In this document: positions 32,997 to 54,708 of the stretch, piece after piece | How the letters are laid out: each line of letters begins with the position of its first letter | Numbering within the stretch: the stretch's first letter is position 1 | Source of the DNA: Desulfomicrobium sp. | Lineage (GTDB): Bacteria; Desulfobacterota; Desulfovibrionia; Desulfovibrionales; Desulfomicrobiaceae | NCBI GenBank assembly: GCA_040768745.1 | Contig: JAXGMI010000002.1 | Coordinates: 608,001-672,000, forward strand | DNA: 64,000 bases | Reading direction: 5' to 3' | Made by a program: the position numbers and the translations under genes | Notes under the pieces: generated by a model | What the model was told of the DNA's origin: nothing | The model's input: the letters and a program-made list of their open reading frames with translations, nothing else | Database searches by the model: none

Positions 32997-33913
32997 GGGG
33001 TCAGATCTTGAATCTTGAATTATTCAACCTTCCTGATGATTTTACTGACCGTCGAATAGTGCAATCCTGTTGCGGCAGCAACGTGTGCCTGGGTGTATCC
33101 GTACACATGGCAGGCCTTGAGGATGGCTGCGTCACGCTGCGCACGGCCTTCTGTGCCCTGTAATATCTCCTCCAAGGCCGGACGGTCGGCAAAACGCTGA
33201 ATGCGAGGGATCTCCTTGAAAGCGCTTTTGTCCTTGAGCAGGGGAAAAAGCTTCTCCAGAAACGGGTCGTCTCCGAGCAGGCACTGTCCTTTGAGGTCAT
33301 TCCATGGCGATTCGGAATCCAGCCCTGCCTTGACAAAAAGACGGTACTCTTTCCGGGCCTGGACGCGATCAGTGCCGAACTGTTCCAGAATCCAGTCCAC
33401 AGCCAGAAAATCCGGTTTCTTTCCTAGCCCTGCCGTGGCCCGGTAACTGGACCATGGATACTTTCCAGGCTCCTTGACCATCCCGGCCCTTACGGGGTTG
33501 AGGACAATATATCGGCACAGTTCGAGAAGATAGGCGTCCCGGTCAACGACAATGGATTTGAACCGCCCTTGCAGCACGTGACCAACCCGGGCATGCCGCC
33601 GGTTGAATGCCTGCGTGTAGACGCTGTTGAACTGGCGCATGGCCTTGGACAGATTGGCGTCTGGAGTCTCAAGCAGGAGATGGAAGTGGTTGGTCATCAG
33701 GCAATACCCATGGCAGATCACGTTGAACCGGCGCATTGTCAGTCCGAGGACGGAGAGAAAGGTGTTCCTGTCGATGTCGTCCAGAAAAATGGAAGCCTGG
33801 GCGTTGCCCCGGGATGTCACATGGTAGATGGCTCCCGGAAATTCTATGCGGAGTGGTCGGGCCATGGTGAAGAAATACTCCGAAAAAATTCAATATTCAA
33901 GATCTGACCCCAG
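32995..33913 (-). mobile_element. Y1 HUH (RAYT-like) element bounded by 27-bp inverted repeats
   Basis: CTGGGGTCAGATCTTGAATCTTGAATT (32995-33021) versus the reverse complement of 33887-33913, CTGGGGTCAGATCTTGAATATTGAATT: 26/27 identical; encloses one ORF. Confidence 0.8.
33020..33865 (-). CDS. REP-associated tyrosine transposase-like protein (Y1_Tnp) with C-terminal HTH
   Basis: YHVTSRGN, LMTNHFHLL (HUH), RYIVLNPVRAG (catalytic Tyr), YPWSSY; C-terminal YTQAHVAAATGLHYSTVSKII HTH. Confidence 0.92.
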   Translation of the reverse strand: MARPLRIEFPGAIYHVTSRGNAQASIFLDDIDRNTFLSVLGLTMRRFNVICHGYCLMTNHFHLLLETPDANLSKAMRQFNSVYTQAFNRRHARVGHVLQGRFKSIVVDRDAYLLELCRYIVLNPVRAGMVKEPGKYPWSSYRATAGLGKKPDFLAVDWILEQFGTDRVQARKEYRLFVKAGLDSESPWNDLKGQCLLGDDPFLEKLFPLLKDKSAFKEIPRIQRFADRPALEEILQGTEGRAQRDAAILKACHVYGYTQAHVAAATGLHYSTVSKIIRKVE

Positions 33914-33919
33914 GTTTCC

Positions 33920-34227
33920 GTGCGATGAGCTTGATGAGCGGCAGCAGCACCTGTACGCCGCTCGACCCCACAGTGTAGGCGATCAGCGCGCAAACGCCGT
34001 ACGGGCGTACTGCATGACGGCTGCCGTGATTTTGATCATGACGGCGTTGGCCGCGTCGAAAATCCTGGCCAGCGGGGCTCCTTTCTCGCCCAGGGCGGAC
34101 AGGGCGAAGCCGAAGAAAATGGCAAAGAAAATCGTTTGCAGAAGATTGCCGGTGGCGAGGGATTCAAAGGGGTTCAATGGGATGATGTTCAACAGGGTCT
34201 GGATCGCGCCGGGAGGGCTGACTTCAT
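33920..34227 (-). pseudogene. Internal fragment of a dicarboxylate/amino acid:cation symporter (DAACS)
   Basis: LLNIIPLNPFESLATGNLLQTIFFAIFFGFAL...KITAAVMQYA; after a 1-nt frameshift continues PYGVCALIAYTVGSSGVQVLLPLIKLIA up to the Y1 element end; both termini missing. Confidence 0.82.
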
Positions 34228-34241: not shown

Positions 34242-35006
34242 TCAGCTTTTCGCTTCCCTGACGATGGCTTCGGCCAGAATCTGGGCAGCATCGAACATTC
34301 GTGTCGCGGGCGTGATCTGACCTCCAATGATGGACAGCTCCGTGCAGGCCACGAGGATTACCTGGGCTCCCCGCCGCGCCAGATTGTCGACGACGTTCTG
34401 GATCGCTTCGACCACCTCGGGCCCGTAACTGCTGGTTTTGATTTTTCGGATGGCGGACATGACGACGCCCTGTTCGCCAGGTTCCATGTCCATGAGCCTG
34501 ACGCCTGCATCGGCGAACCGCTCGTTGTAGAGGCCCAGGTCGAAAACCGCGCTGGAGGCCAGCAGGCCCACGGTTTTCAGGTCCGGGACCTCAGAGGTGA
34601 TGGCGTTCACCGACAGGCCGATCATGTCGAGAAGAGGGATGCTCACCGCCTGCTGGACGCCTTGATGATAGTAGTGGGCCGTGTTGCAGGGGATGGCCAG
34701 GAAATCGACCCCCCATTTCTCCAGGCGACGGGCCATGTCCTGCAGGCATCCAAGAGGGCTTTCTCCGGTTTTTTCGATCAGGGCCCTGATGCGCGAGGGA
34801 ACCTTGGGGTTGTTGTCCACAAGCATGCGGATGTGGTCTATGTCGTCTTTGGCCGTGGTTGCCTTGATGACTCGGTTCATGAGGTCGACGGTTGACTCTG
34901 GCCCCATGCCTCCGAGTATCCCGACTATTTTTTCGCGCCCGCTTGGAGCGGCGGTCGGCTCATGAGCCTGTGAGGATAGGTCGGGCGGTGCGGCGAAGTA
35001 CATCAT
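34242..35006 (-). CDS. Aspartate/glutamate racemase family amino acid racemase
   Basis: GILGGMGPEST, IPCNTAH and ACTELS (two catalytic Cys). Confidence 0.92.
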   Translation of the reverse strand: MMYFAAPPDLSSQAHEPTAAPSGREKIVGILGGMGPESTVDLMNRVIKATTAKDDIDHIRMLVDNNPKVPSRIRALIEKTGESPLGCLQDMARRLEKWGVDFLAIPCNTAHYYHQGVQQAVSIPLLDMIGLSVNAITSEVPDLKTVGLLASSAVFDLGLYNERFADAGVRLMDMEPGEQGVVMSAIRKIKTSSYGPEVVEAIQNVVDNLARRGAQVILVACTELSIIGGQITPATRMFDAAQILAEAIVREAKS

Positions 35007-35095
35007 GTTTCCTTGTTTTAGTTCACTATTTCACAAGTGTTCCGAAAAAAATCCCCGCCAAGGCGGCCCATGGCCGCCCTGACAGGGAGCGTGCA

Positions 35096-36091
35096 TCAGA
35101 ATACCTTCTGGTACGCATACAGGGCGGGCGAACCGCCGGTATGCAGGAACAGGACATTGGACCCTTCGGGGAAATGCCCCTTGCGCACCAGGTCGACCAG
35201 GCCGGCCATGGCTTTGCCCGAATACACGGGGTCAAGGAGGATGGCCTCGGTGGAGGCCAGCAGCTTGACCGCCTCGACCATGGAGTCCGTGGGCAGGGAG
35301 TATCCGGGGCCGACGTAGCCGTCGAAGCATTCCACCGCTTCTTTCGCAATGGGCGTCGCCACACCGACGCGCTCGGCAGTAGCTTCAACCAGCTTGTAAA
35401 CCAGGTTTTCCTGGTCGGCCTTGGTGCGGCTGACGTTAATACCGGAAACGGGGATGCCTGCGTTGTTGCCCTGCATTCCGACTACGATGCCCGCATGAGT
35501 TCCAGCGGAACCGCTGGGAACAACCATGTGATCGATTTTGAGGCCCATGTCGAAGAGCTGTTGCAGGGTCTCCTGGGCGCAGGCGACATAGCCGGTGGCT
35601 CCGATGGTGTTGGAGGCTCCGCCGGGAATGATATAGGGGGTCTTGCCCTTGGCTTTGAGTGCATCGGCCACCGTCTGCATCTCGGCCAGCATGTTGGAGC
35701 CGCCGGGCACCACGGTGATGCTCTTGACGCCCATCAGTTGGAAAAGAAAGTTGTTGCCGGAAGCTTCGGGGCTGTACGAGCCCTTGACGCGTTCTTCGAG
35801 CACCAGATGGCAATCCAGACCTTCCTTGACCGCCCAGGACAGAGTCAGCCGGCAATGGTTGGACTGGACCGCGCCGCAGGTGATGACGGTGTCAGCGCCG
35901 TTGTCGAGGGCGTCCGCGATGCAGAAATCCAGTTTACGGGTTTTGTTGCCGCCGGCGCAACCGGGCAGGAGATCGTCACGCTTGATGAAGATATTGACCT
36001 TGCCTCCAAGGGCTTTGGAAAACGCGGGAAGGGCTTCGATGGGGGTTGGTGTCGTAACGTATCCACGGCGAGAAAATTTTGCCAAATTCAT
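35096..36091 (-). CDS. D-cysteine desulfhydrase / D-cysteate sulfo-lyase family PLP enzyme
   Basis: IKRDDL, GGNKTRKL (PLP Lys), QSNHCR, SGSAGT, LDPVYSGK and FLHTGG. Confidence 0.92.
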   Translation of the reverse strand: MNLAKFSRRGYVTTPTPIEALPAFSKALGGKVNIFIKRDDLLPGCAGGNKTRKLDFCIADALDNGADTVITCGAVQSNHCRLTLSWAVKEGLDCHLVLEERVKGSYSPEASGNNFLFQLMGVKSITVVPGGSNMLAEMQTVADALKAKGKTPYIIPGGASNTIGATGYVACAQETLQQLFDMGLKIDHMVVPSGSAGTHAGIVVGMQGNNAGIPVSGINVSRTKADQENLVYKLVEATAERVGVATPIAKEAVECFDGYVGPGYSLPTDSMVEAVKLLASTEAILLDPVYSGKAMAGLVDLVRKGHFPEGSNVLFLHTGGSPALYAYQKVF

Positions 36092-36113
36092 ATCGGAACT
36101 CCTTGTTGTGAAA

Positions 36114-36500
36114 TTATTTGAGAGAGATGATTGCTTCCATTTCGATGTCCGCTCCAAGAGGCAGGGCCGCCACTTGCACAGCGCTGCGAGCCGGAAATGG
36201 GGCGGAAAAATACGTTGCGTAGACTTCGTTCATTTCCTTGAAATCCTGCAAGTCGGTCAGAAAAACTGTTGTCTTGACGACGTCGTCCAAAGTGCCACCA
36301 GCTTCTTCGACAATGGCGCGCAGGTTTTCAAAAACTTGGCGGGCGCGTTTTCCGATGGAGCCTTCGGGCATTTTTCCGGTCTCCGGATTGATGGGCAACT
36401 GGCCCGATGCGAAAAGCAGGTTTCCGGCGATGATCGCCTGGGAATACGGCCCGATCGCTCCAGGTGCGTTTGTTGACGATACACTCTGTTTGCCAGCCAT
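36114..36500 (-). CDS. RidA family imine deaminase
   Basis: APGAIGPYSQA, SGQLP and FPARSAVQVAALP..ADIEME. Confidence 0.93.
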   Translation of the reverse strand: MAGKQSVSSTNAPGAIGPYSQAIIAGNLLFASGQLPINPETGKMPEGSIGKRARQVFENLRAIVEEAGGTLDDVVKTTVFLTDLQDFKEMNEVYATYFSAPFPARSAVQVAALPLGADIEMEAIISLK

Positions 36501-36627
36501 AAGCGAAACTCCTTAATTCTCGTTTAAGTAATGTCGAATGTCGACATTACAATAAATTTCGTTCCCTCAGCATTGAGAATTTTGTGGTGACATTTTTGTA
36601 GCGACTTCATTTCCAAGTAAGTTTCGC

Positions 36628-37890
36628 TCAAGCAGACCCGGTGAGAGATGATCTGGTCATCGCTGCGAGTTGCAAGTTGTCGATAGCCCGTTCGCGGAGC
36701 AAACATTCGGCTTCTGAAAAACGGGACTGAAGCATATTGATCGCAACGACGATGGTCTGTGCGTACATTTCCAGATCATCATCAGTCAGCATAGGGATCT
36801 GATGGTGCGAGATATACTCCTTTGATACGGCAGATGAGATGACTGCAGCCGTTCCAGGAAGCAATCCGCCATGGTCAACGATATCGTTCACTCCATTGCT
36901 CATGAAGACCACCCCTCCCAAATCATGTTTGACCAAGGTGGCAAGTTCGCCGGCAATGGCGTTTTTCTCGCCACAATTGTCGGCCTTTGCAAAGCGATTA
37001 CCGAGATCGATTATTTTCTGGCCAATTGCCTGGGTCGCCTCCTTCAATGCTCCCGATCTCCTCGGGTATGGATTTGGCGGTAGATAAACAGGATAACCGA
37101 GGCTCTCGGCTGCTGCTGCCAGACAATCGCCGACAACGGAGTTGTCATGCTCTTGGTTGGCGCGAACAATAAGTGTAGTATTTTCTATCACCTCTTTCCA
37201 GAAAGGGACATACGCTTTAGACTCAACGATGATGGTCGGAAGCGTTTTCATGCCGAGAATATCCATCAACAGGCCCTTGTTGCCGACGGGTACATTGCCT
37301 TCAGTGTCCTCGTTAGGGCCAAGGCCGCCCAATCCCGCGTTGACAGTAAGCATTGTCGAGACGGGTACCCCGTTGATCTGCAGAATGGCGCCAAGGTAAC
37401 ATCCACAACTTTGTGGCGTGTCTTCTTCGAAGAAGTGGAATTTGTCTGGATACCTCGCAAGAAAGGTAGCTACGACAGCCCTGGCCAGGGCCGCGATGAA
37501 TGTGGCGGGTATTTCGAGAACACCCTGGCCATGGACCCGGCCAAAGATCGTGGTAGCCAGTGTTTGAGGGCAGAGGCCGTTTTTCCCCAGAGCCGTCTGC
37601 ATCAAAGCCGCCTCGGCTGGGGTGATCCCACATCGGGCAACCGCGGTACCGCAGCCTCCCCCTTCAAGAGTGATGGAGATTTTTCCCTGATCAGTAGCAA
37701 CTTCGATTTGGGCAATCCGTAAATCCACCTGGGCGGCCAGGTGGAATAGTTTGCCAAGAACTGAAAACCCAGCCCCATCTTCTTGAACAAAACCGGAATG
37801 ACTGTGGGCATGACTTACGCCGATGTGCCCAGCCAAGCCAACTTTACCAGTTTTTTCCGTAGAAAATGAAATATCCATGTGTTTATCCAT
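36628..37890 (-). CDS. Hypothetical soluble protein (about 420 aa)
   Basis: Long ORF co-oriented within the operon, 6 nt after the dctM stop; GHIGVSHAHSH motif; no family recognised. Confidence 0.8.
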   Translation of the reverse strand: MDKHMDISFSTEKTGKVGLAGHIGVSHAHSHSGFVQEDGAGFSVLGKLFHLAAQVDLRIAQIEVATDQGKISITLEGGGCGTAVARCGITPAEAALMQTALGKNGLCPQTLATTIFGRVHGQGVLEIPATFIAALARAVVATFLARYPDKFHFFEEDTPQSCGCYLGAILQINGVPVSTMLTVNAGLGGLGPNEDTEGNVPVGNKGLLMDILGMKTLPTIIVESKAYVPFWKEVIENTTLIVRANQEHDNSVVGDCLAAAAESLGYPVYLPPNPYPRRSGALKEATQAIGQKIIDLGNRFAKADNCGEKNAIAGELATLVKHDLGGVVFMSNGVNDIVDHGGLLPGTAAVISSAVSKEYISHHQIPMLTDDDLEMYAQTIVVAINMLQSRFSEAECLLRERAIDNLQLAAMTRSSLTGSA

Positions 37891-37896
37891 TGGATG

Positions 37897-39168
37897 TTAC
37901 AAAAGGCAAAGCACAATTTGCGGGACAAATGCCAAGACAATAATACAACCCACCATTGCCGCGATAAAGGGAAGCACGGCATAGCTCAGTTTTTCGATAC
38001 TAATTCCACTTATTCCGCAACCAACAAAAAGGTTCACTCCTACCGGTGGGGTAAGAAAGCCCACGGAGACAGCGGCGATCATAACTATGCCGAAATGCGT
38101 CATGTCGATACCGGCCTGAACCACCAGAGGTTGAAGCAGGGGGGTCAGGATGAGGATGTTGGCCAGAGCGTCCATAAAAGTGCCGAGAACCAGCAGCATC
38201 AGAATAATAACCAGAAAGAAGATTATTTTGTTCTCGGTCAGGCCAGAGAGCAGGCCGACCATGGCGTTAGGGACATTGTAAATCAAAAGAATCTGCCCCA
38301 GAGCAGAGGCAGTTGCAACTACCAAGAAAATAGTCGCAGTGGTGATGGTGGTATTGCGCAGAATCTGCCAACACTTTGATTTGTCGAGTCTTCTCAACAG
38401 AAATCCTTCAACAATGAAGGCGTAAGTGACGGCGATTGCCCCAGCCTCAGTCGGAGTTGTAATCCCACCATAAATACCGCCGAGGACAATGACAGGAACC
38501 GCCAAGGCGTATTTCGCTCCCTGGAAAGCTTGCCAGGTCTGCTTATGGGAGGCTTTCGGGCTTTTTGTCTCAAAGCCGTGATACTTTGACAGGACATAAC
38601 AGGTAAACATGAGAATGATGCCGATGAACACACCGGGAACGACCCCGGCAATGAACAAATCACCCACCGAAACATTTGCAGTTGTCCCGTAAATGATCAG
38701 CGGGACACTCGGGGGAATCATCACCCCGAGACAGCCGGCTGTAACGTTGGTGGCGGTGGAGAATGATTTCGAGAACCCCTCTTTTTCCATGGAGGGAATC
38801 ATTATCCCGCCAACCGCGGCCACCGTCGCCGGTGCTGACCCGCTGAGCGCCCCGTAAAACATGCAGGTGAGCACGGAGACCTGGGCCAGGCCACCAGTGA
38901 CGTGTCCTATCAAACAGCGTGAGAGACGCAGTAGAGCCTCGGCCATGCTCCCCTTCTGCATGATCTCGCCGGCCATTATAAAAAAAGGCACAGCAAGAAG
39001 CGGGAAGGCGTCCAGGGAAAAAAACATCTTCTGCATGAGAAACTGCACCGGGATGTCGCCCGCGACCACTGCTATGACAACACTCAGACCAAGTGCGACA
39101 GCAATGGGTACGCTCAAAAGCAGCAATATCGGCAGAGAGACAGCAATAAGCAGGATGGGAAGGTCCAT
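37897..39168 (-). CDS. dctM: TRAP transporter large permease
   Basis: LLAVPFFIMAGEIM, GALSGS, MIPPS, TPTEAG and LTPPVGVNLFV. Confidence 0.94.
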   Translation of the reverse strand: MDLPILLIAVSLPILLLLSVPIAVALGLSVVIAVVAGDIPVQFLMQKMFFSLDAFPLLAVPFFIMAGEIMQKGSMAEALLRLSRCLIGHVTGGLAQVSVLTCMFYGALSGSAPATVAAVGGIMIPSMEKEGFSKSFSTATNVTAGCLGVMIPPSVPLIIYGTTANVSVGDLFIAGVVPGVFIGIILMFTCYVLSKYHGFETKSPKASHKQTWQAFQGAKYALAVPVIVLGGIYGGITTPTEAGAIAVTYAFIVEGFLLRRLDKSKCWQILRNTTITTATIFLVVATASALGQILLIYNVPNAMVGLLSGLTENKIIFFLVIILMLLVLGTFMDALANILILTPLLQPLVVQAGIDMTHFGIVMIAAVSVGFLTPPVGVNLFVGCGISGISIEKLSYAVLPFIAAMVGCIIVLAFVPQIVLCLL

Positions 39169-39256
39169 AATGCACTGCTCCTTGTCTTGAACAGGTTGCG
39201 TGACTGAAGTCGGTATTCAGCAGAGTTGCAAAGAGAGACCTGCTGCAAAGCCGAAA

Positions 39257-39754
39257 TTAAATAAATAACGCTTCGTTACCGCCGTCTTTTTTTAATACAA
39301 TATCTTTGATGACAACGATTGTGCGTAGAGCCATCAGTAAAAAACCGAGGGGGATACAGACATAGGCGATCCACATGGGAAATTGCAGGGCGGGGGCAAC
39401 CTGATTGGATTCGATAACGAACTGGGTCATCATGATCCCCCAAACAAACATGATGCCGCAGAATACAACGGTGATCAGATATGCCAGTATGGTAAAATAA
39501 TTGCCGATCTTTGCCCCGAATACTGTTCGGGCTATGGTGACTTCGAGATGGCGTCTCTCCGCTGCGGCAAAACTCGATCCGACATAGACGGCAAAAATAA
39601 ACAGATAACGGGCGAGTTCTTCCGGCCAGTCCAGGGATTGCTGGAGGACATATCTCTGAAAAACCTGAAGAACGATGATTATTGCCATAGCCCCAAGAGC
39701 ACATGACGAGACGATCTCTTCAAATTTGTTGAGCCATTGCCAAAATGTCGCCAT
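39257..39754 (-). CDS. dctQ: TRAP transporter small permease
   Basis: Four TM helices; QVFQRYV...WPEELARY. Confidence 0.9.
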   Translation of the reverse strand: MATFWQWLNKFEEIVSSCALGAMAIIIVLQVFQRYVLQQSLDWPEELARYLFIFAVYVGSSFAAAERRHLEVTIARTVFGAKIGNYFTILAYLITVVFCGIMFVWGIMMTQFVIESNQVAPALQFPMWIAYVCIPLGFLLMALRTIVVIKDIVLKKDGGNEALFI

Positions 39755-40233
39755 TTCAACCTCGATGTGGTGGCCGGGGGATGTGATACATCCCCCGCCT
39801 CCACTCAGTGTTAGGTAATGAAGAATGACTGTTGATTATTGTCCGGCAACTGTCTTTTTCATCTCTTCAATCAACTCCGGCGGCACTTCTTTTGAGAACA
39901 TCGGAGCAACTTTTGACGTTGCGTCAATCCAACGTTGCCGTTCAGCCGGAGAGAGTTCGATGATTTCGCCTCCCATCGCCTTGATCTTTTCCAGAATCAT
40001 TGCTTCGTTGTTACGGATCTTGTCACGTTGGAATTTCTGCATGACGGCAAAAGATTCTCTTACCCACTGCTGCTCATTTGCTGGCAGACCTTCAAAAAAT
40101 TTCTTCGAGATCATTACCAGGTGGGGGCTGTAGAAGCTTCTGGTCAGAGTGACATATTTGGTGATTTCTCCTCTGGGATAGGGTTTTCTTGGACACCAAA
40201 TTGGGAGTAGAGAGACTCCCCATGAGGTGATTC

Positions 40234-40623
40234 ATGAGCAAACAAAGCGACAAGGATATTTCAGCCGTCTCCCCGGTGGAGGGAGGCCGTAGGCCGACTG
40301 GAACCGGGGAGACGAAGGCAACTCCCAAGCGATTCTGGGCACAGCACAAGACCGAGGCCGTCCTCCGGCTTCTGCGTGGTGAAGACATCGAAACGCTCAG
40401 TCGGGAACTCGGCGTGACGGCTGCCACGCTCTCACAATGGAGAGATGCCTTTCTGGCCGGTGGCGCGGATAGTCTCAAAAAACGCTCTCCGGCGGAGGAG
40501 GCCGAATACAAGCGCCTCAATGAGAAAATCGGCGAGCAGACCATGGAGATAGAACTGCTCCGCGAGAAGATCCGAATGATGGAGGCAAAAGACCCTTTGG
40601 GGTTGCGGAGGTCGAGGAAATGA
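40234..40623 (+). CDS. IS3-family OrfA (HTH)
   Basis: KTEAVLRLLRGEDIETLSRELGVTAATLSQWRDAF; overlaps orfB by ATGA. Confidence 0.85.
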   Translation: MSKQSDKDISAVSPVEGGRRPTGTGETKATPKRFWAQHKTEAVLRLLRGEDIETLSRELGVTAATLSQWRDAFLAGGADSLKKRSPAEEAEYKRLNEKIGEQTMEIELLREKIRMMEAKDPLGLRRSRK

Positions 40624-41509
40624 GCCGGTCCACCTCGCCCTCCACTGGTCAGACGTATGGGCTGGTGCTGGTTTGCCGGGTCTGGAATCTCCCCAGGTCC
40701 ACGCATTATGCACGCAAGGTTGCGAATGAGGGCACACCAAGCCGCCGAGGCCCTATTGGCTTCCACAGTGATGGGGAGTTGTTCGGGCACATCGTGGCAT
40801 GCATCCAGAACTCCCCTTTTACTGGTGAAGGCTATCGGAAAGTGTGGGCCAGGTTGCGTTTTGAGGGCATCAGAACGTCCCCCTGCGAACGCTTCGGATC
40901 ATGAGAGAGAACAACCTGCTCGCAGTGCGCAAGCCCGGCAGGCCGCATGGCCCCAAGGCGCATGACGGGACGATCAAGACTGCCCGGGTGGACGAGATGT
41001 GGGGCACGGACATGACCACGACGATGACCATGCAGGAAGGCAACGCTTCGATCTTCCTGGCCGTGGACCACTGCTCTCTGGAGTGTGTCGGCATCCACGC
41101 CGCTAAGTACGGGACGCGCTTTGAAGCCCTGGAGCCGATTCGCCAAGGTGTGCGCCACAGCTTTGGAGCCTTTGGACCCGCCGTGGCAGAGGGCCTGACC
41201 CTGCGACATGACAATGGTAGCCAGTACGTTTCCAGTGTGTTTCAAGAGGAGGTTTCCTTCCTGGGCATCCGGAGTTCGCCTGCTTTCGTCAGAGAACCCC
41301 AAGGCAACGGCATCGCCGAGAGGTTCGTGCGCACGCTCAAGGAAAACCTGCTCTGGGTCCGGCGGTTCGATACGGTCGAGGAACTCCGACTTGCCCTCTT
41401 GGAGTTCAAGGAGACGTACAACCGGGAATGGATCATTGGACGCCACGGCTACAAGACTCCGGCAGCGGTGCGGGCCATCCAGAAAGAGGCCGTGAACGTT
41501 GCGGCTTGA
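40620..41509 (+). pseudogene. IS3-family OrfB DDE transposase, frameshifted at a C5 run (40879-40883)
   Basis: GYRKVWARL in the first frame; WGTDMT, HDNGSQY and NGIAERFVRTLKE in the second; adding one C gives GIRTSPLRTLRIMREN. Confidence 0.8.
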
Positions 41510-42329
41510 TTAACCAAAAACGTGTCAAAAAACCGTAGACCGATACATTTCGGGGAATTTGTTAAACCAAGCAAGATTGAGATCGATGTCGATGGCGTCG
41601 ACGGTCTTCTGCTGCAGAGCGGTATAGACCTCACCCCAGGCAACAGGTGTGGGGTTCATTCCGAGTGACTTGAGAATCTCGATATGCGCCTTGGAGTGGG
41701 TAGCTCGGATTTTCAGGCCTTTGGCATCCTCAAGGCTACGAATTGGCCGGCTGGAAAATATCTGCCGAAAGCCGATTTCAATATAGCCAAGACCCAGAAT
41801 GCCATTTTTTTCCAGGGACTCCGCCAATCGCGTACCGATGGGACCATCGGTGATCAGGTCCGAAGCCGCGTAGCTCGGAACAATAAAAGGCATGTCCAGA
41901 AACATCATTTGCGGGTTGAAGACCGACAGGTTATTGGTAGCGTCCGAGCCCATTTGCAGCATGTTCATCTGCAGCCCCTGAACCACCGCATCGAAATTGC
42001 CATATTTCGAGCTATCGTAGACATCTACTTTAAAGACCCCCCCGGATCTCTCCTCCAAATCCTTTTTAAAAAGCTCATAACCCTCCCCCATGGGGTGTTG
42101 GGGGACGTTCGGATGTGCAAGCTTGATGGTTTTCTGGTTGGCTGCATTGCCGTCGGCAAGGGCCCCCCCACCTACCATCATGATCAGTGCCGCCAGAATA
42201 ACTCCTAATTTCTTTGCCAATTTCATGCGCTGCTCCTCCTTAGGGTTGATAATACCGAGGTCCTCTGACTGATTTTTTGTGAGAAGATCACCTCCACATG
42301 CCCATCCTGAAGAGACGGAAAATACACGT

Positions 42330-43112
42330 TCATGATTCATTCATGGTCACAATTCCTGAAATATCGTTAGCAAGTTTGATCACCTGCCCTGCGTAGGTAT
42401 TTATGACTGATTCGACGGTATATCCATCCGCCGGCAGATCGAAGCTGATTGCCCCGGCAACCTTGTTCGTCCGGTAATTGATCAGCGGGGCGCCGATACA
42501 GATCAATCCCTGCACATATTCCTGATTATTTATTGAATACCCCTGATTGCGAATCTCTTCGATCTCCCGGAGAAGAACATCAGCCCTGTCAATGGTATTG
42601 GGGGTGAGCTTTTGTAATGGAGTCGTGGCCAGAAAGCTTTCAAGATCGCTCTGATCCATTCGGGACAGGACTGCCTTGCCAGTGGCACGAGCATGAAGAT
42701 CTTTACATGCGAGAGGTTGTCGAAAGAAGAGGGTTGAAGTCGCCTCACGTCGATAGAGTGCCAGCAGGGTTAGGCCATCGACGAGGATCGAATCTATGGT
42801 GACATTGCACAGACGGTGTGCTTCATCGATCAGCGGTTTGATCATGTGAAGCAATTCATAACCTTGAACAATAGTATGACCCAAGAGGAGAGCCTTCGGG
42901 CCGAGCCGCAAAGTTTTACTTTGCGGGTTTTTGTCCAAAAGCCCTAAAAGAACGAGGGTGTTGACCAGACGGTACGTAGAGGTTTTGTTGATCCCCAACA
43001 GTCGAGATATCTCTGATAGGGTCCAGCGACTGTGGTCCTTGTCGAAGAGATTAAGAATTGAAAGCCCCTTCTCCAGGGTTGTCGAAAAATAACCATCGGG
43101 ATCTGATGCCAT
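42330..43112 (-). CDS. IclR family transcriptional regulator
   Basis: TLEKGLSIL, LSEISRLLGINKTSTYRLVNTL, ATGKAVL and GLICIGAP. Confidence 0.92.
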   Translation of the reverse strand: MASDPDGYFSTTLEKGLSILNLFDKDHSRWTLSEISRLLGINKTSTYRLVNTLVLLGLLDKNPQSKTLRLGPKALLLGHTIVQGYELLHMIKPLIDEAHRLCNVTIDSILVDGLTLLALYRREATSTLFFRQPLACKDLHARATGKAVLSRMDQSDLESFLATTPLQKLTPNTIDRADVLLREIEEIRNQGYSINNQEYVQGLICIGAPLINYRTNKVAGAISFDLPADGYTVESVINTYAGQVIKLANDISGIVTMNES

Positions 43113-43124
43113 ATCGTTACTCCG

Positions 43125-43139
43125 TTACGATAATAGTAA
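43125..43139. promoter_or_regulatory. Candidate IclR operator
   Basis: TTACGATAATAGTAA, 6 of 7 palindromic pairs, between the promoter and the start codon. Confidence 0.45.
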
Positions 43140-43157
43140 TAAATTTACTTTATTTGA

Positions 43158-43185
43158 AGTATATGGTATTTTTTTAGTAAGTCAA
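43158..43185 (-). promoter_or_regulatory. Sigma70-type promoter of the IclR-TRAP operon
   Basis: TTGACT-N16-TATACT on the minus strand in an AT-rich tract. Confidence 0.6.
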
Positions 43186-43275
43186 TTACTTTTATTAAGC
43201 CAAAAGAAGATTCAATTGATACTGCAGATTTTCTTTGGTTTCAGATGGATATCACGGTATGTTTTCGGCGGATGC

Positions 43276-43307
43276 GAAAGCGCTCAGGCATCCGCATCTT
43301 CCACGGG
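43276..43307 (-). mobile_element. Isolated IS66 right-end remnant
   Basis: GAAAGCGCTCAGGCATCCGCATCTTCCACGGG versus GTAAGCGCTCAGACATCCGCATTTTCCACGGG at 43876. Confidence 0.75.
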
Positions 43308-43360
43308 TGTCAAACAGTATCGAATAATGACCCCGCATCGGCGTCCAATTCTGCCCCCCT
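43308..43360. mobile_element. Probable IS21-family terminal remnant
   Basis: Starts TGTCAA and carries two related units (AATAATGACCCC, AATTCTGCCCCC), as IS21 ends do. Confidence 0.45.
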
Positions 43361-43399
43361 CCGGGCGTGTCTGTAAGCATCCGGCCAAAGGCTGTGCGG

Positions 43400-43709
43400 A
43401 GGCCGCATCACCGCTACTGGCCGGACGAACAGGCAGACCTCCCGGGGTAAGACACGTTAGTGTCCCTTGGGGCTCGCCGGATTTACCCCCGCCATGTCGG
43501 AATGTGTATAGGGCATCGGAATCCATTGCTCCCTTACCCCATGACGGCAGGCCTTGTATCCGGTTTCTGTTCGTCGATCCCAAGGTCTTGTCTCGGGCTT
43601 CCTTCCCACGACTCCTCGCGATGCCGCAGCTGCCTCCGACTCGTGGTTCCGCACATCACGGCCCACAGGGGACTTGCACCCCATAACTGACGCGCCATGC
43701 CCGGCGCAC
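43400..43709 (-). ncRNA. Group IIC intron, 5' fragment (domain I and start of domain II; no RT ORF or domains V-VI)
   Basis: Begins GTGCGCCGGGCATGG at 43709; contains GGGTGCAAGTCCC, GGAAGGAAG, GAACAGAAACCGGATA, GTAAATCCGGCG and CTTACCCCGGGAGGTCT; lies right after a terminator hairpin; 3' breakpoint approximate. Confidence 0.85.
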
Positions 43710-43938: not shown

Positions 43939-45540
43939 TTACTTTTTGCGAGGCTTGGGCTTGGGAAGGCTTGGGAGAAGGGATTTGTCCACGTGCTGCG
44001 GCATGAGCGCCCGCATGTCTTCCGTGGTCCGTGCTGCGGGGAAGCGTTCGAAGAGGAATTTCAGGTAGGCTTGGGGCTCGATCTCGTTGGCCTTGGCGGT
44101 TTCCACCAGGGAAAAGAGCATGGCGCTGGCGTCAGCGCCCTTGGGGACTCCGGCAAAGAGCCAGTTCTTCCGGCCCAGGGCCACGGGGCGGATGGCGTTC
44201 TCGGCCGTGTTGTTGTCGGGCGTGAGCAATCCGCAGTCCACGTAGCGCACGGCCCGGCTCCACTGGTTGCGGGCGTAGGTCATGGCCTGTCCGAGCAGGC
44301 TTTTGGGCGGGACGTGGTCGATGCGCTCGTCGAGGATGGCCCGTATTGCGTTGAGGATGGGAACTGCTTGCTCCAAGCGCATTGGTACCTTTTCCTCCGG
44401 CTCCAGTTCTTTGATATTGTGCTCGACCTTGTAGAGCAGACCGATGAGATCCAGGATTTCCTTGGCCGTCCCGTGCGTGATCTTCTTTGAGGTCGCTTTC
44501 TGGACGTCCATGAACTTACGACGGATGTGGGCCATGCAACCGACATGGATGATGCCGTCCGATTCGCCGAGAGCCTGGTACCCGGAGTAGCCGTCGGTCT
44601 GGATGTAGCCCTTGTACTCGCCCAGATACTCCTTGGGGACAGAGCCCGACCTGGTCGGGTCGTAGCAATAGACCACGGTCGGCCGATCTGGATTGCCGCC
44701 ACGGAAGAGCCACAGATACGATGTGGAAGTATCGGATCGCCCTGGTTCGTTGAGTACTTGCAGTGTGGTTTCGTCCATGTTGATGACCGGGCCGGAGCGG
44801 ATTTCCGCCTGGAACAGTTCATGGAGCGGCTCCAGCGCCTTGGCCACGGCCATGGCCCATCCGGACATGGAATGACGCGGGATGTCCACGCCCAAGCGGG
44901 CAAACTGCTTGGTCTGGCGGTAGAACGGCATGGCATCGACGAACTTGGCGGTAATGACCTGGGCCAAGAGGCTCGGCGTGGCGATGCCCTTGGGGATGAT
45001 CTGCGGCGGCATGGGTGCGATACGCACCACCGGCATACCCTCCTCTCCGTCGCAGGCCGGACAGGCGTACTTCGGGCGGATATGGCGTTCTACCCGCATG
45101 ACGGCCGGGACGTAATCGAGCTTTTCGGAGACTTCTTCGCCGATGCGCTTCAGGCAGGCTCCGCAAGAGCAGAGTTTCTGGTCTTCGGGCAGATCGTGAA
45201 CGACTTCGATGCGCGGCAGGTGATCCGGCAGAGGCTTGCGTCCCCGCTTGGCTCTGGTGTGGGCCGGGACTTCGACGACGGGCATTTCCGCAGGCTTCGC
45301 CTCTGCGATCCTAACCAAGGGCAGAGGTAGGATGCCTTGGTAGAGGTCTTTGGATTTCTCGGACTTGGGAGCATACAGGGCGGCCTGCAACAGGGCCACG
45401 CGATCCTGGAGATGGCGGTTTTGCTGGTAGTAATCCCAGACCAGATGCTTGAGTTGCCCGATGTCATCGGGAAGGTTCTCGATGTCTCCCATGCAAGAAT
45501 ATTTAGCAATAATATCTTGAAATAGCAAGATATTTGTCAC
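43939..45540 (-). CDS. tnpC: IS66 transposase TnpC
   Basis: RKPLPDHLPR, zinc finger, MDETT, QTDGYSGY, CMAHIRRKF and DNNTAENAIRPVALGRKNWLFAG. Confidence 0.95.
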   Translation of the reverse strand: MTNILLFQDIIAKYSCMGDIENLPDDIGQLKHLVWDYYQQNRHLQDRVALLQAALYAPKSEKSKDLYQGILPLPLVRIAEAKPAEMPVVEVPAHTRAKRGRKPLPDHLPRIEVVHDLPEDQKLCSCGACLKRIGEEVSEKLDYVPAVMRVERHIRPKYACPACDGEEGMPVVRIAPMPPQIIPKGIATPSLLAQVITAKFVDAMPFYRQTKQFARLGVDIPRHSMSGWAMAVAKALEPLHELFQAEIRSGPVINMDETTLQVLNEPGRSDTSTSYLWLFRGGNPDRPTVVYCYDPTRSGSVPKEYLGEYKGYIQTDGYSGYQALGESDGIIHVGCMAHIRRKFMDVQKATSKKITHGTAKEILDLIGLLYKVEHNIKELEPEEKVPMRLEQAVPILNAIRAILDERIDHVPPKSLLGQAMTYARNQWSRAVRYVDCGLLTPDNNTAENAIRPVALGRKNWLFAGVPKGADASAMLFSLVETAKANEIEPQAYLKFLFERFPAARTTEDMRALMPQHVDKSLLPSLPKPKPRKK

Positions 45541-45890
45541 TATAGAACCGATCTGTAGTACAACCGCTGATGTGCTCCTTGCGGCGTGAGCGTGAGTCCA
45601 TCGAGGAGCCAGCCAAGCTGTTGCGGGGTGATATTCATGACCTCTGACGCCCGCTCGGGCCAGCAGAATCGATGCTTCTCCAGGCGCTTGTGCCAGAGGC
45701 AGAAGCCGTTGCGATCCCAGTACAGCACCTTGATGGCGTCGCGCCTGCGGTTGCAGAAGACAAAGAGGTGTCCGGAAAAGGGGTCCAGATCGAGAATGCC
45801 CTGGGCCGTCATGCTCAGTCTGTCGATGCCGGCGCGCATGTCCGTGGTACCGGGGGCGAGATAGACCTTGGCCGCGGGCACCCTCAGCAT
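45540..45890 (-). CDS. tnpB: IS66 accessory protein TnpB
   Basis: TDMRAGIDRL and LFVFCNRRRDAIKVLYWDRNGFCLWHKRLE. Confidence 0.93.
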   Translation of the reverse strand: MLRVPAAKVYLAPGTTDMRAGIDRLSMTAQGILDLDPFSGHLFVFCNRRRDAIKVLYWDRNGFCLWHKRLEKHRFCWPERASEVMNITPQQLGWLLDGLTLTPQGAHQRLYYRSVL

Positions 45891-46210
45891 CGGGCTTCCA
45901 GCACGGTCAGCAGCTTGGTCAGCGTGGCTTCGTCGAAGTCAGCCGGGATATCGAGAGCGTAACGCTTACCGACCAGCAGGCCAATGGACGGGGCTTTCGA
46001 GGCGAACGTAAGCGGCAACGCCACAAGAGCAGGAATTGAGGTGGATTCGCCACCAGAAGATGATCGGGACTTTGTTATCCAGTATTGGAACGTGCTCAAA
46101 GCCAAACCATTTTCGCGACAGTATCGGGTCTTGCCGAGGCCACTCTCCCGCCATTGCCGGACATGCGCCATCCAGCGTGCCGCGTGATTCTGTGCAAATT
46201 GAGATTTCAT
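45884..46210 (-). CDS. tnpA: IS66 accessory protein TnpA
   Basis: WRESGLGKTRYCRENGLALSTFQYW; GGAGG RBS before ATG 46210. Confidence 0.85.
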   Translation of the reverse strand: MKSQFAQNHAARWMAHVRQWRESGLGKTRYCRENGLALSTFQYWITKSRSSSGGESTSIPALVALPLTFASKAPSIGLLVGKRYALDIPADFDEATLTKLLTVLEARC

Positions 46211-46420
46211 GAAGACCTCCTTGAATTGGAGGCCCATTATCTCACATGAAAAATTTATGGATAGATGCGGACAGGTGAGCGCTTACAGATACCAAGCCTC
46301 TCCCACGTGGACTGCCGTTTTGAAGAGATGAAAGACGAAACCGTCGGGCCATCGCATCCAACCCATCAAACTGAGTGCAGCCATGTTGACCCGGACCGAG
46401 AGGTCCCTTTCAGACAGTCA

Positions 46421-47638: not shown

Positions 47639-48661
47639 ATGAAAGCCATTCCCGTTGAAGAAGCCGTCGGCACCGTTCTCTGCCACGACATCACCCGCAT
47701 CATCCCAGGGGAAAGCAAGGGCCCCGCCTTCAGGCGCGGCCACATCGTCACCCCCGACGACATTCAGTCGCTGCTGGATATCGGCAAGGAGCATCTCTAC
47801 GTCTTCGATCTCAGGGACGGATACGTGCACGAGGACGAGTGCGCCCTGCGCCTGGCCCACGCCGCGGCAGGACAGGGCATCGCCATTTCTTCCCCCAGCG
47901 AGGGCAAGGCAACCCTGTCCGCAGCCCATGACGGCGTCCTGCACATCGACGTCGAAGGGCTCCTGCGCCTCAACTCCATCACCGACGTCACCTTCGGCAC
48001 CATCCACACGGGCCAGTTCGTCAAGGCCGGTCGCGCCCTTGGAGGCACCCGGGTCATCCCCCTGGCCGTGCCGGAGGAACTCCTGCGCCAGGCCGAGGAC
48101 GTCTGCCGTCAACACGCCCCGCTGATGGAGGTCAGACCCCTCAAGTCCGCGCGCGTGGGCGTCGTGACCACGGGCAGCGAAGTCTACACCGGCCGCATCA
48201 AGGATGGCTTCGGCCCGGTGCTGCGCAGAAAATTCGAACACCTGGGCTCGACGGTCATGGACCAGACCTTCGTCTCGGACCAAGTCGGCATGACGGTCTC
48301 GGCCATCCTGGATCTCGTGCATCGCGGCGCGGACTTCATCGCGGTGACCGGCGGCATGAGCGTGGATCCCGACGACCAGACCCCGGCGGCCATCCGCCTT
48401 ACGGGGGCCGAGGTCGTCTCCTACGGTGCCCCGACCTACCCCGGCGCCATGTTCATGCTTGCCTATCTGGGCGATGTGCCCATCGTCGGCCTGCCCGGAT
48501 GTGTCATGTACTACAAGGCCAGCATCTTCGATCTGGTCGTGCCCCGTCTCTTGAGCGGGGAAAGGCTGAAACGGAAGGATATCGGAGCGTTCGGCCATGG
48601 GGGCCTGTGCGAAAACTGTCCCACCTGTCACTACCCGGCCTGCGGCTTCGGCAAGCTCTAG
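47639..48661 (+). CDS. Molybdopterin-binding protein (MoeA/MoCF-biosynthesis-like domain)
   Basis: GTVLCHDIT, VTTGSEV, TGGMSVDPDDQTP, PGAMF and GLPGCV; C-terminal CxxCxxCxxxxC. Confidence 0.85.
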   Translation: MKAIPVEEAVGTVLCHDITRIIPGESKGPAFRRGHIVTPDDIQSLLDIGKEHLYVFDLRDGYVHEDECALRLAHAAAGQGIAISSPSEGKATLSAAHDGVLHIDVEGLLRLNSITDVTFGTIHTGQFVKAGRALGGTRVIPLAVPEELLRQAEDVCRQHAPLMEVRPLKSARVGVVTTGSEVYTGRIKDGFGPVLRRKFEHLGSTVMDQTFVSDQVGMTVSAILDLVHRGADFIAVTGGMSVDPDDQTPAAIRLTGAEVVSYGAPTYPGAMFMLAYLGDVPIVGLPGCVMYYKASIFDLVVPRLLSGERLKRKDIGAFGHGGLCENCPTCHYPACGFGKL

Positions 48662-48710
48662 ATCCCACGCGAAACCTGTTTGGAACAACACGTTATTTGG
48701 AGGAATCGGA

Positions 48711-51428: not shown

Positions 51429-51443
51429 TGACCCGTTCAACCT

Positions 51444-51481
51444 CCCTCCGGGCGTTTTTGCGCCCGGAGGGCTTTCTATTT
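51444..51481 (+). terminator. Strong hairpin after mop
   Basis: CCCTCCGGGCG-TTTTTG-CGCCCGGAGGG-CTTTCTATTT. Confidence 0.7.
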
Positions 51482-51494
51482 CCAAGGAGAGGGC

Positions 51495-53765: not shown

Positions 53766-53971
53766 GCATGATTTTCATGCCGCAGGACATGGACTGGGTC
53801 TGCGAACCCTGCGGGGAACGCATGGAATCCGGCAAGGTCGAGCTGACCTACCTGGGCAATGCCTTTCATGTGGAACTGCCGGTCTGCCCCAGGTGCGGGG
53901 CCGTGTACATCTACGAGGAATTGGCATTGGGGCGGATTCGCGAAGTGGAGCAACTGCTTGAAGACAAGTGA
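53762..53971 (+). CDS. Small two-CxxC redox/zinc-ribbon protein (DVU_1557-like)
   Basis: WVCEPC...LPVCPRCGAVYIYEELA...VEQLLEDK; GGAGG RBS. Confidence 0.8.
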   Translation: MSMIFMPQDMDWVCEPCGERMESGKVELTYLGNAFHVELPVCPRCGAVYIYEELALGRIREVEQLLEDK

Positions 53972-54662
53972 ACTGTACACGTCCGCGCCGGTCAGGTCGG
54001 CCCTGGGCCGCACCCTGCGTCCTGGCGGGTTGGCGTTGACACGGCGTTTGCTGCAATTGGCGCCACCTGCGCCCGGAAGCAGAGTGCTGGATGCCGGGTG
54101 CGGGCGTGGGGAGACCCTCGGGCTGCTGCTGGAAAGCGGAGCCCGGGCCCTGGGCCTGGATCTGCATGCCGGCTTTTTGCGGGAAGCGTGCCAGGACGGA
54201 CGTGCCGTTGCGCGGGCAGACCTGAAACGTCTGCCCGTTGCGGACAAGAGCCTGGATCTGATCGTGTGCGAATGCACCTGGAACCTGACGGACAAGGAGG
54301 GGGTGCTGGCGGAGTTCTTCCGGACATTGAGGTCTGGCGGGACCCTCGCCCTGGCCGACATCTACACCCGCGGCTACCGCAGCGGGGAATGGCCCCTGCG
54401 CTGCTGTTTCGAGCAGGCCACAGACCTGCAGACCGTGCTGGAGCAGGTGGCCTGCGCCGGGTTCGAAATCGACGTGGTCGAGGATCACACGGCCATGCTG
54501 AAGAAGACCGCGGCGGATTTCGTCTTCCGCCACGGCTCCCTGTTCGGCTTCTGGCAGGCCGTGACCGGCGATCCGGGCCTGGCTGAGATGGCCTGCGCTG
54601 CGTCGCGGGAATCGAAGCCGGGATTGTTCTTGTTGACGGCGCACGTTCCGTGGGGAGAATAA
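53958..54662 (+). CDS. Class I SAM-dependent methyltransferase (DVU_1556-like)
   Basis: LRPGGLALT and VLDAGCGRG; start (TTG) uncertain. Confidence 0.85.
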   Translation: MKTSELYTSAPVRSALGRTLRPGGLALTRRLLQLAPPAPGSRVLDAGCGRGETLGLLLESGARALGLDLHAGFLREACQDGRAVARADLKRLPVADKSLDLIVCECTWNLTDKEGVLAEFFRTLRSGGTLALADIYTRGYRSGEWPLRCCFEQATDLQTVLEQVACAGFEIDVVEDHTAMLKKTAADFVFRHGSLFGFWQAVTGDPGLAEMACAASRESKPGLFLLTAHVPWGE

Positions 54663-54708
54663 AAAATCTATAGATCCTATGGGATCCATGGGGCCTATAA
54701 CTTTTCGA

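Follow-up and report, generated by a model that had tools for sequence, protein, structure and literature searches.

A gene cluster in a Desulfomicrobium genome joins genes for cysteate breakdown to an acquired module that encodes a regulator, a transporter and a chimeric protein that we call Unk, and this combination points to an undescribed step feeding cysteate into sulfide production. The cluster lies in the window analysed here, a stretch of 64,000 nucleotides whose coordinates we use throughout.

Organization and origin of the cluster

We found eight co-oriented genes on the minus strand, encoding IclR, DctP, DctQ, DctM, Unk, RidA, a PLP lyase and a racemase, but the locus is not a single intact eight-gene operon. 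The preliminary description had set these genes behind one sigma70-type promoter; the genes and a promoter-like site are indeed present, whereas the split of dctP by an insertion sequence (IS), an internal terminator and a mosaic composition do not fit that picture, and we rejected an eight-gene operon of single descent. The 5′ module (iclR, the TRAP genes dctPQM and unk) has low GC3 and DNA about 81% identical to loci of other sulfate-reducer lineages, and its IclR-family regulator (42330..43112, minus strand; PF09339 and PF01614) is 78–83% identical to counterparts in loci L001–L004, L006 and L017. In the 3′ ridA-cuyA-cuyB part, RidA is 90–95% identical to same-genus RidA proteins adjoining cuyA, and CuyA is 97–98% identical to three CuyA proteins of the same genus. 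Instead of the intact DAACS (SDF) importer that stands next to cuyAB in the Bilophila wadsworthia type of cluster, a deleted remnant lies 3′ of cuyB (~33923..34225, minus strand), covering only positions 95–181 of PF00375; it is internally deleted, truncated next to an IS200-like transposase gene, and 82% identical in nucleotides to the full gene in same-genus locus L163, with ~470 nt missing. Sequence comparison thus supports acquisition of iclR-dctPQM-unk and its placement 5′ of a genus-typical ridA-cuyA-cuyB unit whose own importer has decayed.

The promoter-like site (TTGACT-16-TATACT, 43158..43185, minus strand) scores 10/12; over the whole scan such sites do not exceed chance in total (7 found, 7.7 expected from shuffles), and TTGAC with a −10-like box at similar spacing recurs at the corresponding position in the 6 orthologous upstream regions examined. 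Directly 5′ of iclR, a near-palindrome (43124..43139, minus strand) has 1 match in the window and 0 in 100 shuffles; its pattern matches 9 of 174 loci, in each case where an iclR-type gene begins, a count made in the same loci from which the pattern was built. This element is probably the IclR operator, and the regulator may control its own synthesis. The second candidate operator, the palindrome ATGTCGACAT 5′ of ridA (36538..36547, no strand assigned), is weak taken alone, with a match in 7 of 100 shuffles. Similar palindromes occur in 24 of 174 loci, mostly 5′ of ridA or cuyA; they precede dctP in only 2 of 11 TRAP loci (L030 and L063), and the variant in L018 is within chance. We regard it as probably a GntR-type operator that belonged to the native cuyA unit and was kept at the module junction; one query (E 1e-20) retrieved none of the GntR regulators that accompany native cuyA units from this genome. 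An intrinsic-terminator-like hairpin occupies the cuyA/cuyB gap (35052..35088, minus strand; 17 bp, −39.4 kcal/mol, z −6.4). The preliminary description had overlooked this terminator, the ridA operator, the mosaic origin and the IS in dctP. Sequence of the locus is present in anaerobic digesters, and contigs of RNA run X15 cover 26 of 30 bins, one of them spanning 35490–36722, a coverage that, taken without a silent control stretch, does not by itself show transcription of the locus.

A probable cysteate route downstream

The 3′ part corresponds, as judged by family membership, to the published route from L-cysteate through D-cysteate to sulfite, pyruvate and ammonia. All three proteins exceed their model cut-offs: RidA, an enamine/imine deaminase (36114..36500, minus strand; TIGR00004, 176.6 against 106.25), CuyA, a D-cysteate sulfo-lyase that depends on PLP (35096..36094, minus strand; NF052482, 525.8 against 450), and CuyB, a cysteate racemase (34242..35006, minus strand; NF052483, 271.9 against 190). 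CuyA stays below the cut-offs of the PRK03910 D-cysteine desulfhydrase equivalogs (280–308 against 429–610) and retains N50, K51, S78, N79, Y291 and T319; the reference residues in the main text of PMC11193023, in StDcyD numbering, are N50, K51, S78, N79, Y287 and T315 and include the PLP lysine and the D-selective tyrosine. CuyB retains its catalytic cysteine pair (C107 and C221), and DsrA is among the proteins of this genome. CuyB would interconvert L- and D-cysteate, CuyA would cleave D-cysteate to sulfite and aminoacrylate, RidA would accelerate hydrolysis of aminoacrylate to pyruvate and ammonia, and Dsr would reduce the sulfite, which would serve as terminal electron acceptor. We consider it very probable that this core supplies sulfite from cysteate.

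The logic of racemase, lyase and RidA, and its link to CuyB/CuyA, had been proposed in the preliminary description and is borne out by the two family models and by DsrA. The same description held that the substrate could not be read from sequence and that sulfite or sulfide would be released. Model scores and catalytic residues narrow the substrate class further than that, favouring cysteate for the downstream genes, and the caution remains apt for import and for the role of Unk; of the two products sulfite is favoured, whereas sulfide from D-cysteine would be a minor activity, as the main text of PMC11193023 gives characterised CuyA 17% activity on D-serine and 4% on D-cysteine and reports B. 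wadsworthia CuyB inactive on L-cysteine and L-serine.

A TRAP transporter interrupted in this genome

The acquired transporter comprises DctM (37897..39168, minus strand; PF06808, and TIGR00786 above cut-off), DctQ (39257..39754, minus strand; PF04290) and a solute-binding protein, DctP, whose gene is split into a 5′ part (41548..42223, minus strand; PF03480 positions 2–193) and a 3′ part (39836..40168, minus strand; PF03480 positions 192–283), so that the set of three intact DctPQM subunits is not complete in this genome. Between the parts lies an IS on the plus strand (40169..41547; 1379 bp, with an HTH ORF and an rve ORF by Pfam), which we take to be IS3/IS481-like. It is flanked by a 4-bp target duplication, TTTC, its removal brings the 3′ part into frame with the 5′ part, and the genome carries 10 near-full copies, this one counted. 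All three DNA runs examined contain the intact dctP allele (a joint skipping 1383 bases), and we rejected the IS junction as the usual state of the population. With DctP disrupted by the IS, uptake is probably dead in this genome, but intact in alleles from other samples. The nearest solved sequences to an intact, 91%-identical DctP orthologue are 4p47 and the isethionate-binding protein IseP (8t9t). DctP retains the IseP residues R156, R177, W200, N98, S242 and H244, while N217, Y153 and D77 are all replaced, and its sequence places an Asp-Ile-Asp motif at a predicted binding-site position. In a related TRAP system of the same genome, a TIM-barrel amidohydrolase occupies the slot after dctM.

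Unk is predicted to combine an enolase-type cap with another core

Unk (36628..37878, minus strand; 416 aa) had no sequence match in Pfam, NCBIfam or the PDB, searched singly and as alignments; in the ESM Atlas the window protein found matches below 0.9 and one relative found unnamed clusters. Its AlphaFold2 model (pLDDT 95.9) predicts a phosphorylase/hydrolase-like alpha/beta core with a helical hairpin and an inserted enolase-superfamily N-terminal cap at about residues 52–142. A profile search with the cap gave only ankyrin noise, whereas the cap folded alone (pLDDT 93.4) matched the enolase superfamily in 49 of the 50 listed rows of a fold search (best Z 10.6, r.m.s.d. 2.8, 94 residues aligned). 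The (beta/alpha)7-beta barrel of enolases is absent from the model, and the remainder is a mixed-sheet core matching MTAN/PNP-like folds; identity as a true enolase was rejected for want of that barrel, and identity as aspartase was rejected on the separate aspartase that adjoins unk in locus L049. Whole-chain searches returned hydrolases and phosphorylases as best neighbours: MTAN (Z 13.1, r.m.s.d. 3.4, 179 aligned), AF0625 (Z 11.7), TET aminopeptidase (Z 10.2) and IAA-amino-acid hydrolase (Z 9.9). Several clan-MH zinc peptidases of M20, M28 and M42 (Z 9.0–10.2) tie with or fall below the nucleosidase and phosphorylase matches, and the archaeal AF0625 and PH0006, which we take to be of the D-aminoacyl-tRNA deacylase family, come second and fifth in the wide fold search. 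From the model, Unk appears to be a domain combination without a solved representative in the libraries searched.

The protein is predicted to be a homodimer with the helical hairpin in the interface, and a putative metal site would comprise H18, H23, D/E33, D34, E190, D191, E193, E219 and K221. Across 57 sequences, H18, H23, D34, E190, E193 and R239 are invariant, D191, E219 and K201 are conserved in 56 and K221 in 54. Four conserved positions resemble the clan-MH ligands (the H, D, E-E, D/E, H set); no conserved C-terminal His, presumably the motif that supplies the last ligand in these peptidases, was seen in the alignment. Profile comparison by hhalign was not significant against M42 (probability 1.7%; a thin profile, with 6 of 26 M42 loci passing the motif filter) or DUF1177 (0.4%; a thin four-sequence profile), and the best local match, QDDSAG over the M42 ‘DDRxG’ motif, was likewise not significant.

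Genomic context of Unk

The genes are co-conserved elsewhere, as the preliminary description would lead one to expect. CuyA lies within 8 kb of Unk in 39 of 103 loci and in 23 of the 25 TRAP loci with adequate flanks (L092 probably carries a spurious TRAP flag caused by its Opp system, while L053 and L063 have divergent TRAPs that fall below threshold); both remaining TRAP loci have cuyA elsewhere in the genome. Each of the 21 adjoining PLP lyases that we scored exceeds the NF052482 cut-off. Among 61 relatives, CuyA occurs in 17 overall, and all 5 relatives with Unk have it (four above cut-off, one split across contigs); 13 of the 17 lack Unk, so Unk is accessory. Asparaginase adjoins Unk relatives in 17 of 103 loci, never together with TRAP and CuyA, and in L049 of this branch the aspartase directly follows unk. 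In most informative loci unk lies directly 3′ of a transporter gene, of four types in all, which suggests that Unk acts on an imported compound. Unk relatives also adjoin HpfG and, with CuyB already present, the HpsN/CuyC/TauA cysteinolate genes (L080 and L029); a place beside HpsN and CuyC is seen in 3 of 103 loci.

What Unk may do

We tentatively propose that the TRAP system would take up a negatively charged conjugate of cysteate with an N-acyl, peptide or amide linkage, that the enolase-type cap would select its Asp-like residue, and that Unk, as a dimeric metal-dependent amidohydrolase, would release cysteate, perhaps as the D isomer from the outset, to CuyB, CuyA, RidA and Dsr. Amidohydrolase activity for Unk itself is an equally tentative suggestion, plausible yet short of probable. 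Support comes from the co-occurrence with CuyA, the hydrolase and phosphorylase fold neighbours, the invariant residues, the IseP residues in DctP, the HpsN, CuyC, TauA and HpfG neighbours and the amidohydrolase after dctM of the related TRAP system, and the N-acetyltaurine transporter with NaaS, in the available text of PMC4334477, would offer a precedent for the layout by analogy. Against it stand the lack of sequence-level homology to any hydrolase and of a conserved C-terminal His, the IseP residues replaced in DctP and the absence of Unk from most CuyA genomes. Literature searches, which did not reach subscription journals, found no natural cysteate conjugate and no description of a cysteate amidohydrolase, of a D-asparagine racemase with asparaginase or of a TRAP-cuyA cluster.

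It is less likely that Unk is a new metal-dependent racemase or epimerase of Asp-like amino acids, independent of PLP and of cysteines, with the TRAP system importing free cysteate; Unk would then make D-cysteate for CuyA and, in the asparaginase branch, turn D-Asn or D-Asp into the L forms. The enolase superfamily, whose cap fold the inserted domain matches, includes racemases and epimerases, and K221, K201 and the histidines H18 and H23 beside the acidic cluster would suit such chemistry, but the catalytic TIM barrel is missing and the core-fold matches contain no racemase. CuyB above cut-off occurs in 8 of 15 tested genomes with Unk and CuyA and in 11 of 13 CuyA genomes without Unk, a small depletion among related genomes, several of them incomplete; it was not found in the Unk-bearing genomes G407 (99% complete) and G216 (100%), and in L005 and L006 only a 30-aa stub of cuyB is left. 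However, the window keeps CuyB next to unk, as do 7 of 39 CuyA loci, L080 has both CuyB and CuyC, and a D-cysteate-releasing hydrolase would yield the same pattern. The aspartase of L049 and the asparaginase-linked DAACS carriers also speak for a racemase: these carriers keep residues for a free alpha-amino and alpha-carboxyl group, roles that we assume from GltPh, and so fit a free neutral amino acid better than the N-acyl or peptide substrate of the amidohydrolase proposal. We think it improbable that the transporter takes up free cysteate or cysteinolate while Unk has a side role, for example clearing Asp-like amino acids that are mischarged or N-modified as a D-aminoacyl-tRNA deacylase would, or is a non-catalytic partner; the ranks of AF0625 and PH0006, the decay of the native DAACS importer where TRAP arrived and the Unk members without a transporter or catabolic gene nearby agree with this, whereas the position of unk behind four types of transporter gene does not. 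Least probable of all is a substrate other than a form of cysteate, such as D-serine, D-cysteine or cystine, S-sulfocysteine, lanthionine or a conjugate. Equivalog scores are not assays, CuyA has the side activities given above, and neither Taurinivorans muris nor D. psychrophila grew on cysteate although both encode CuyA (accessible text of PMC10507020 and PMC11193023), but the inactivity of B. wadsworthia CuyB on L-cysteine and L-serine and the recurrent sulfonate neighbours favour sulfonates.

Unk might, with some hesitation, be taken to found an undescribed family joining an enolase cap to a phosphorylase/hydrolase-like metal core, either as a racemase for Asp, Asn or cysteate free of PLP and of the cysteine pair or by releasing D-cysteate from a natural conjugate. 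If so, either activity would account for sulfate reducers that have CuyA but no CuyB, and cysteate respiration would gain a third entry route. In the main text of PMC11193023, CuyB adjoins just 668 of the 1720 putative CuyAs and the natural sources of D-cysteate are left open; the module, with DctP and Unk as two soluble proteins, offers a concrete candidate to fill some of that gap. Since Unk is reused with asparaginase in other lineages, a single assay would annotate the family as a whole. In anaerobic digesters, the route would contribute further sulfide from organosulfonates.

Comparison with known systems

With phosphorylase/hydrolase-like enzymes (MTAN/PNP, AF0625, M20/M28/M42 peptidases and peptidyl-tRNA hydrolase), Unk shares core topology (Z 9–13, 155–205 residues aligned), and we presume its acidic and His residues to sit at comparable positions. 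It differs in its 6–15% identity, the enolase cap after the first helix and the helical hairpin, and its likeness to MTAN/PNP nucleosidases is one of fold only. The enolase superfamily (mandelate racemase, dipeptide epimerases and N-acyl amino acid racemases) shares the N-terminal capping domain, with Z up to 10.6; in Unk this cap is predicted to be grafted onto another catalytic fold.

The B. wadsworthia cluster in the main text of PMC11193023 likewise keeps CuyA, CuyB, RidA and a DAACS gene together with catalytic residues retained, but here the DAACS gene is a remnant, and the locus further contains a TRAP system, IclR and Unk; the portions of that text covered by our searches mention no TRAP transporter or Unk-like protein. 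As in the D-cysteinolate pathway HpsN-CuyC-CuyB-CuyA (available portion of PMC12814064), extra upstream enzymes would feed a precursor into CuyB/CuyA; Unk, however, is unrelated to HpsN or CuyC, neither of which is in the locus, and our queries matched elsewhere in the genome at only 28–34% identity. From N-acetyltaurine uptake with the amidohydrolase NaaS we borrow the layout of transporter, deacylase and desulfonation, although uptake is by an ABC system there (accessible text of PMC4334477 and PMC13335735) and by TRAP here, and Unk is set apart from NaaS by its matching no amidohydrolase family rather than by direct comparison. With IseP, the isethionate TRAP binding protein (available text of PMC11668362), one of its two nearest solved sequences, DctP shares both Arg, Trp200, Asn98, Ser242 and His244, and departs from it in Asn217, Tyr153 and Asp77 and in the Asp-Ile-Asp motif at the predicted site.

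Results

All eight genes (iclR, dctP, dctQ, dctM, unk, ridA, a PLP lyase gene and an Asp/Glu-type racemase gene) lie co-oriented on the minus strand, where the preliminary description had placed them, and its linking of the racemase and lyase to CuyB (which racemises cysteate) and CuyA (the D-cysteate sulfo-lyase) is borne out. The lyase scores 525.8 against NF052482 (cut-off 450) and carries N50, K51, S78, N79, Y291 and T319, and the racemase scores 271.9 against NF052483 (cut-off 190) with both cysteines present. Cysteate desulfonation by CuyB, CuyA and the enamine/imine deaminase RidA is likely. The source genome (99.99% complete) encodes DsrA. Elsewhere, three genomes with unk (L115-L117) hold CuyB-model matches unlinked to cuyA and amid unrelated genes, so racemases with a different function may also fall within this model.

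The sigma70-like site proposed before iclR was found and recurs in orthologous loci, as does a palindrome at 43124-43139, but the promoter scan overall was at chance (7 sites found vs 7.7 expected). Missed in that first reading were a 17-bp hairpin with a U-tail between the lyase and racemase genes (z -6.4), the remnant of an SDF-type importer (DAACS) gene directly after the racemase gene, and a 1379-bp insertion sequence (IS) with a 4-bp duplication that interrupts dctP. Ten near-full copies of this IS occur in the genome. The dctP halves are in frame once it is removed, and contigs from 3/3 DNA runs (three studies, none marked as a possible source) join across its position, indicating that an intact allele exists in the population. 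At 40878 and 41525, inside the IS, all four sequencing runs carry one extra base at each position relative to the window copy, which is therefore frameshifted or contains sequencing errors. Mobile DNA lies on both sides of the cluster (33020-33865, 43272-43700 and 43939-46237): an IS200-like transposase gene, a repeated element near 43270-43390 with many loose ends in the sequencing-run contigs, and an IS66 element. Farther along, a GC-rich block (~67%; 47639-59996) encodes a molybdopterin aldehyde/xanthine oxidoreductase, an Fe-S/CCG protein, XdhC and a MobA-like protein.

By composition and identity the locus is a mosaic of two parts, ridA-cuyA-cuyB and iclR-dctPQM-unk. The former shares 87-93% DNA identity with loci of the same genus, upstream of which nothing like iclR-TRAP-unk was found; the closest loci to the latter, at 77-83% identity, have titles that name Desulforhopalus, Desulfobulbaceae or uncultured deltaproteobacteria. 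GC3 is 0.74-0.75 for cuyA and cuyB and 0.59 for ridA (genome median 0.72), and 0.53-0.61 across iclR-dctPQM-unk. The junction falls near 36570-36620 and retains the palindrome ATGTCGACAT, present before ridA/cuyA in many loci; in a 91-93% identical metagenome contig (L030) with the same fusion, it sits before dctP. We infer, taking direction from composition and identity, that iclR-dctPQM-unk was gained horizontally and the native importer decayed. Many genus-level cuyA units (L164, L166, L168, L170, L029) have a PF03553 Na+/H+ antiporter-family gene with GntR, replacing or beside the DAACS gene; the antiporter-family protein is a candidate further cysteate carrier.

For Unk, the 416-residue product of unk (36628-37878, minus strand), the 90% level yielded 98 relatives and the 50% level 182 representatives or fragments, and no Pfam family was passed consistently by any of 57 aligned members. 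It is rare, occurring in 5/61 related genomes and, counting one marginal case, in four of the 401 genomes from the phylum. The neighbourhood comparison covered 103 loci, of which 18 came from genomes, 80 were the best among 326 metagenome matches and 5 were others; some are near-duplicates and many are short. TRAP was flagged in 58, CuyA in 39, RidA in 24, asparaginase in 17, CuyB in 8 and HpsN/CuyC in 3. The co-conservation on which the preliminary description depended does extend elsewhere for TRAP and CuyA: cuyA is present in 23 of 25 Unk TRAP loci with adequate flanks, and for the remaining two it lies elsewhere in the genome. With partial and duplicate ORFs excluded, 21/21 tested neighbouring lyases passed the CuyA model and 7/7 racemases the CuyB model.

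The 17 asparaginase-type loci never contained TRAP or CuyA, their carrier being a divergent DAACS (13) or CitMHS-like (4). In a FastTree phylogeny rooted at its midpoint, both contexts appear scattered, each on more than one branch. These DAACS carriers keep D394, T398 and N401, with R397 replaced by N, D390 by Y and NMDGT by NMHAC/NMHAV (residue numbering and roles as in GltPh), a pattern suggesting that the substrate is a free amino acid whose side chain is neutral. With Asn at the acidic-substrate Arg position and ties to unk and asparaginase, the NMHAC/NMHAV subfamily looks like an uncharacterised specificity class; its gene precedes unk in L041, L042, L043, L054, L058, L073, L075, L083, L087, L097 and L106. 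Among other neighbourhoods, one Unk member in a Fusobacteria record adjoins the sulfopropanediol dehydratase HpfG, unk is directly followed at L049:9156-10070 by an aspartate ammonia-lyase that has a cyclic-nucleotide-binding domain at its N terminus, and P0118 (729 aa) joins Unk and asparaginase-like sequence, a candidate fusion or read-through.

The AlphaFold2 model of Unk (pLDDT 95.9, pTM 0.94) has a phosphorylase/hydrolase-like core, best matching MTAN (Z 13.1, rmsd 3.4, 179 aligned), then AF0625 (11.7), TET aminopeptidase (10.2) and M20 hydrolases (9.3-9.9). Residues 49-146, folded alone (pLDDT 93.4), resemble the enolase-superfamily cap in 49 of the 50 matches listed (best Z 10.6, rmsd 2.8, 94 aligned). 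This domain combination was found neither among 48,161 representative solved chains nor in literature searches. All 57 sequences share H18, H23, D34, N180, E190, E193, R239 and M326; D191, E219 and K201 are kept in 56 and K221 in 54. D33/D34, E190/D191 and E219 fall at what we take to be metal-ligand positions of peptidases and HybD-type proteases, a correspondence that was not significant in a profile test. A homodimer model scored 0.95 (best control 0.00), with runs sharing >=98% of contacts at pLDDT >=94; 20/30 solved pairs and 1/23 single chains reach the same mark, rates only roughly valid for Unk. Because the predicted interface comprises the cap, the 186-191 loop and a helical hairpin, both subunits may contribute to the active site.

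Among solved sequences, 4p47 and the isethionate-binding IseP come nearest to the DctP of an intact orthologue. Of the IseP residues listed in PMC11668362, DctP retains R156, R177, W200, N98, S242 and H244 but not N217, Y153 or D77, and at S95 it has Ala, with Ser in another branch, a pattern that fits an anion other than isethionate itself. The genome has a second related TRAP (DctP 50%, DctM 59%; L175:6400-13100 = G000:C1:600412-607093), in which an IS66-type element separates a short dctP ORF from dctQ; an amidohydrolase gene follows, and a TPP enzyme, a CoA-acylating semialdehyde dehydrogenase, an SDR and TctA are encoded upstream.

Discussion

We envision a route in which TRAP would import a cysteate conjugate, Unk would free cysteate, and CuyB, CuyA and RidA would then desulfonate it. 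Tentatively, we favour reading Unk as a metal amidohydrolase acting on the conjugate: in whole-chain fold comparison its best neighbours are enzymes of hydrolysis or phosphorolysis, many loci retain CuyB, and the related TRAP of the same genome is followed by an amidohydrolase at the corresponding place. The main alternative, that Unk is itself a racemase, seems less likely, although the enolase-type origin of the cap and the residues of the asparaginase-linked DAACS site speak for it, as does the presence of CuyB in 8/15 genomes with Unk and CuyA vs 11/13 CuyA-only relatives, a difference drawn from few, related and partly incomplete genomes. We consider a side role for Unk improbable, and a substrate other than cysteate more improbable still, even though T. 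muris has CuyA yet did not grow on cysteate (PMC10507020). Unk bears directly on D-cysteate supply in sulfate reducers that lack CuyB.

Bile salt hydrolases of the TIM-barrel type are described in PMC13081988, the consulted portion of which showed no link to Unk. The main-text parts of PMC11193023 and PMC12814064 that we covered make no mention of a TRAP-linked unknown protein. There, L-cysteate is racemised by CuyB and D-cysteate converted by CuyA to sulfite, pyruvate and ammonia, RidA and DAACS genes lie within the described cuyAB cluster, and CuyA has an adjoining CuyB in 668/1720 cases (PMC11193023); CuyC and HpsN extend the pathway to cysteinolate (PMC12814064). The CuyB/CuyA/RidA core is thus an already known pathway, and the new part is the accessory module.
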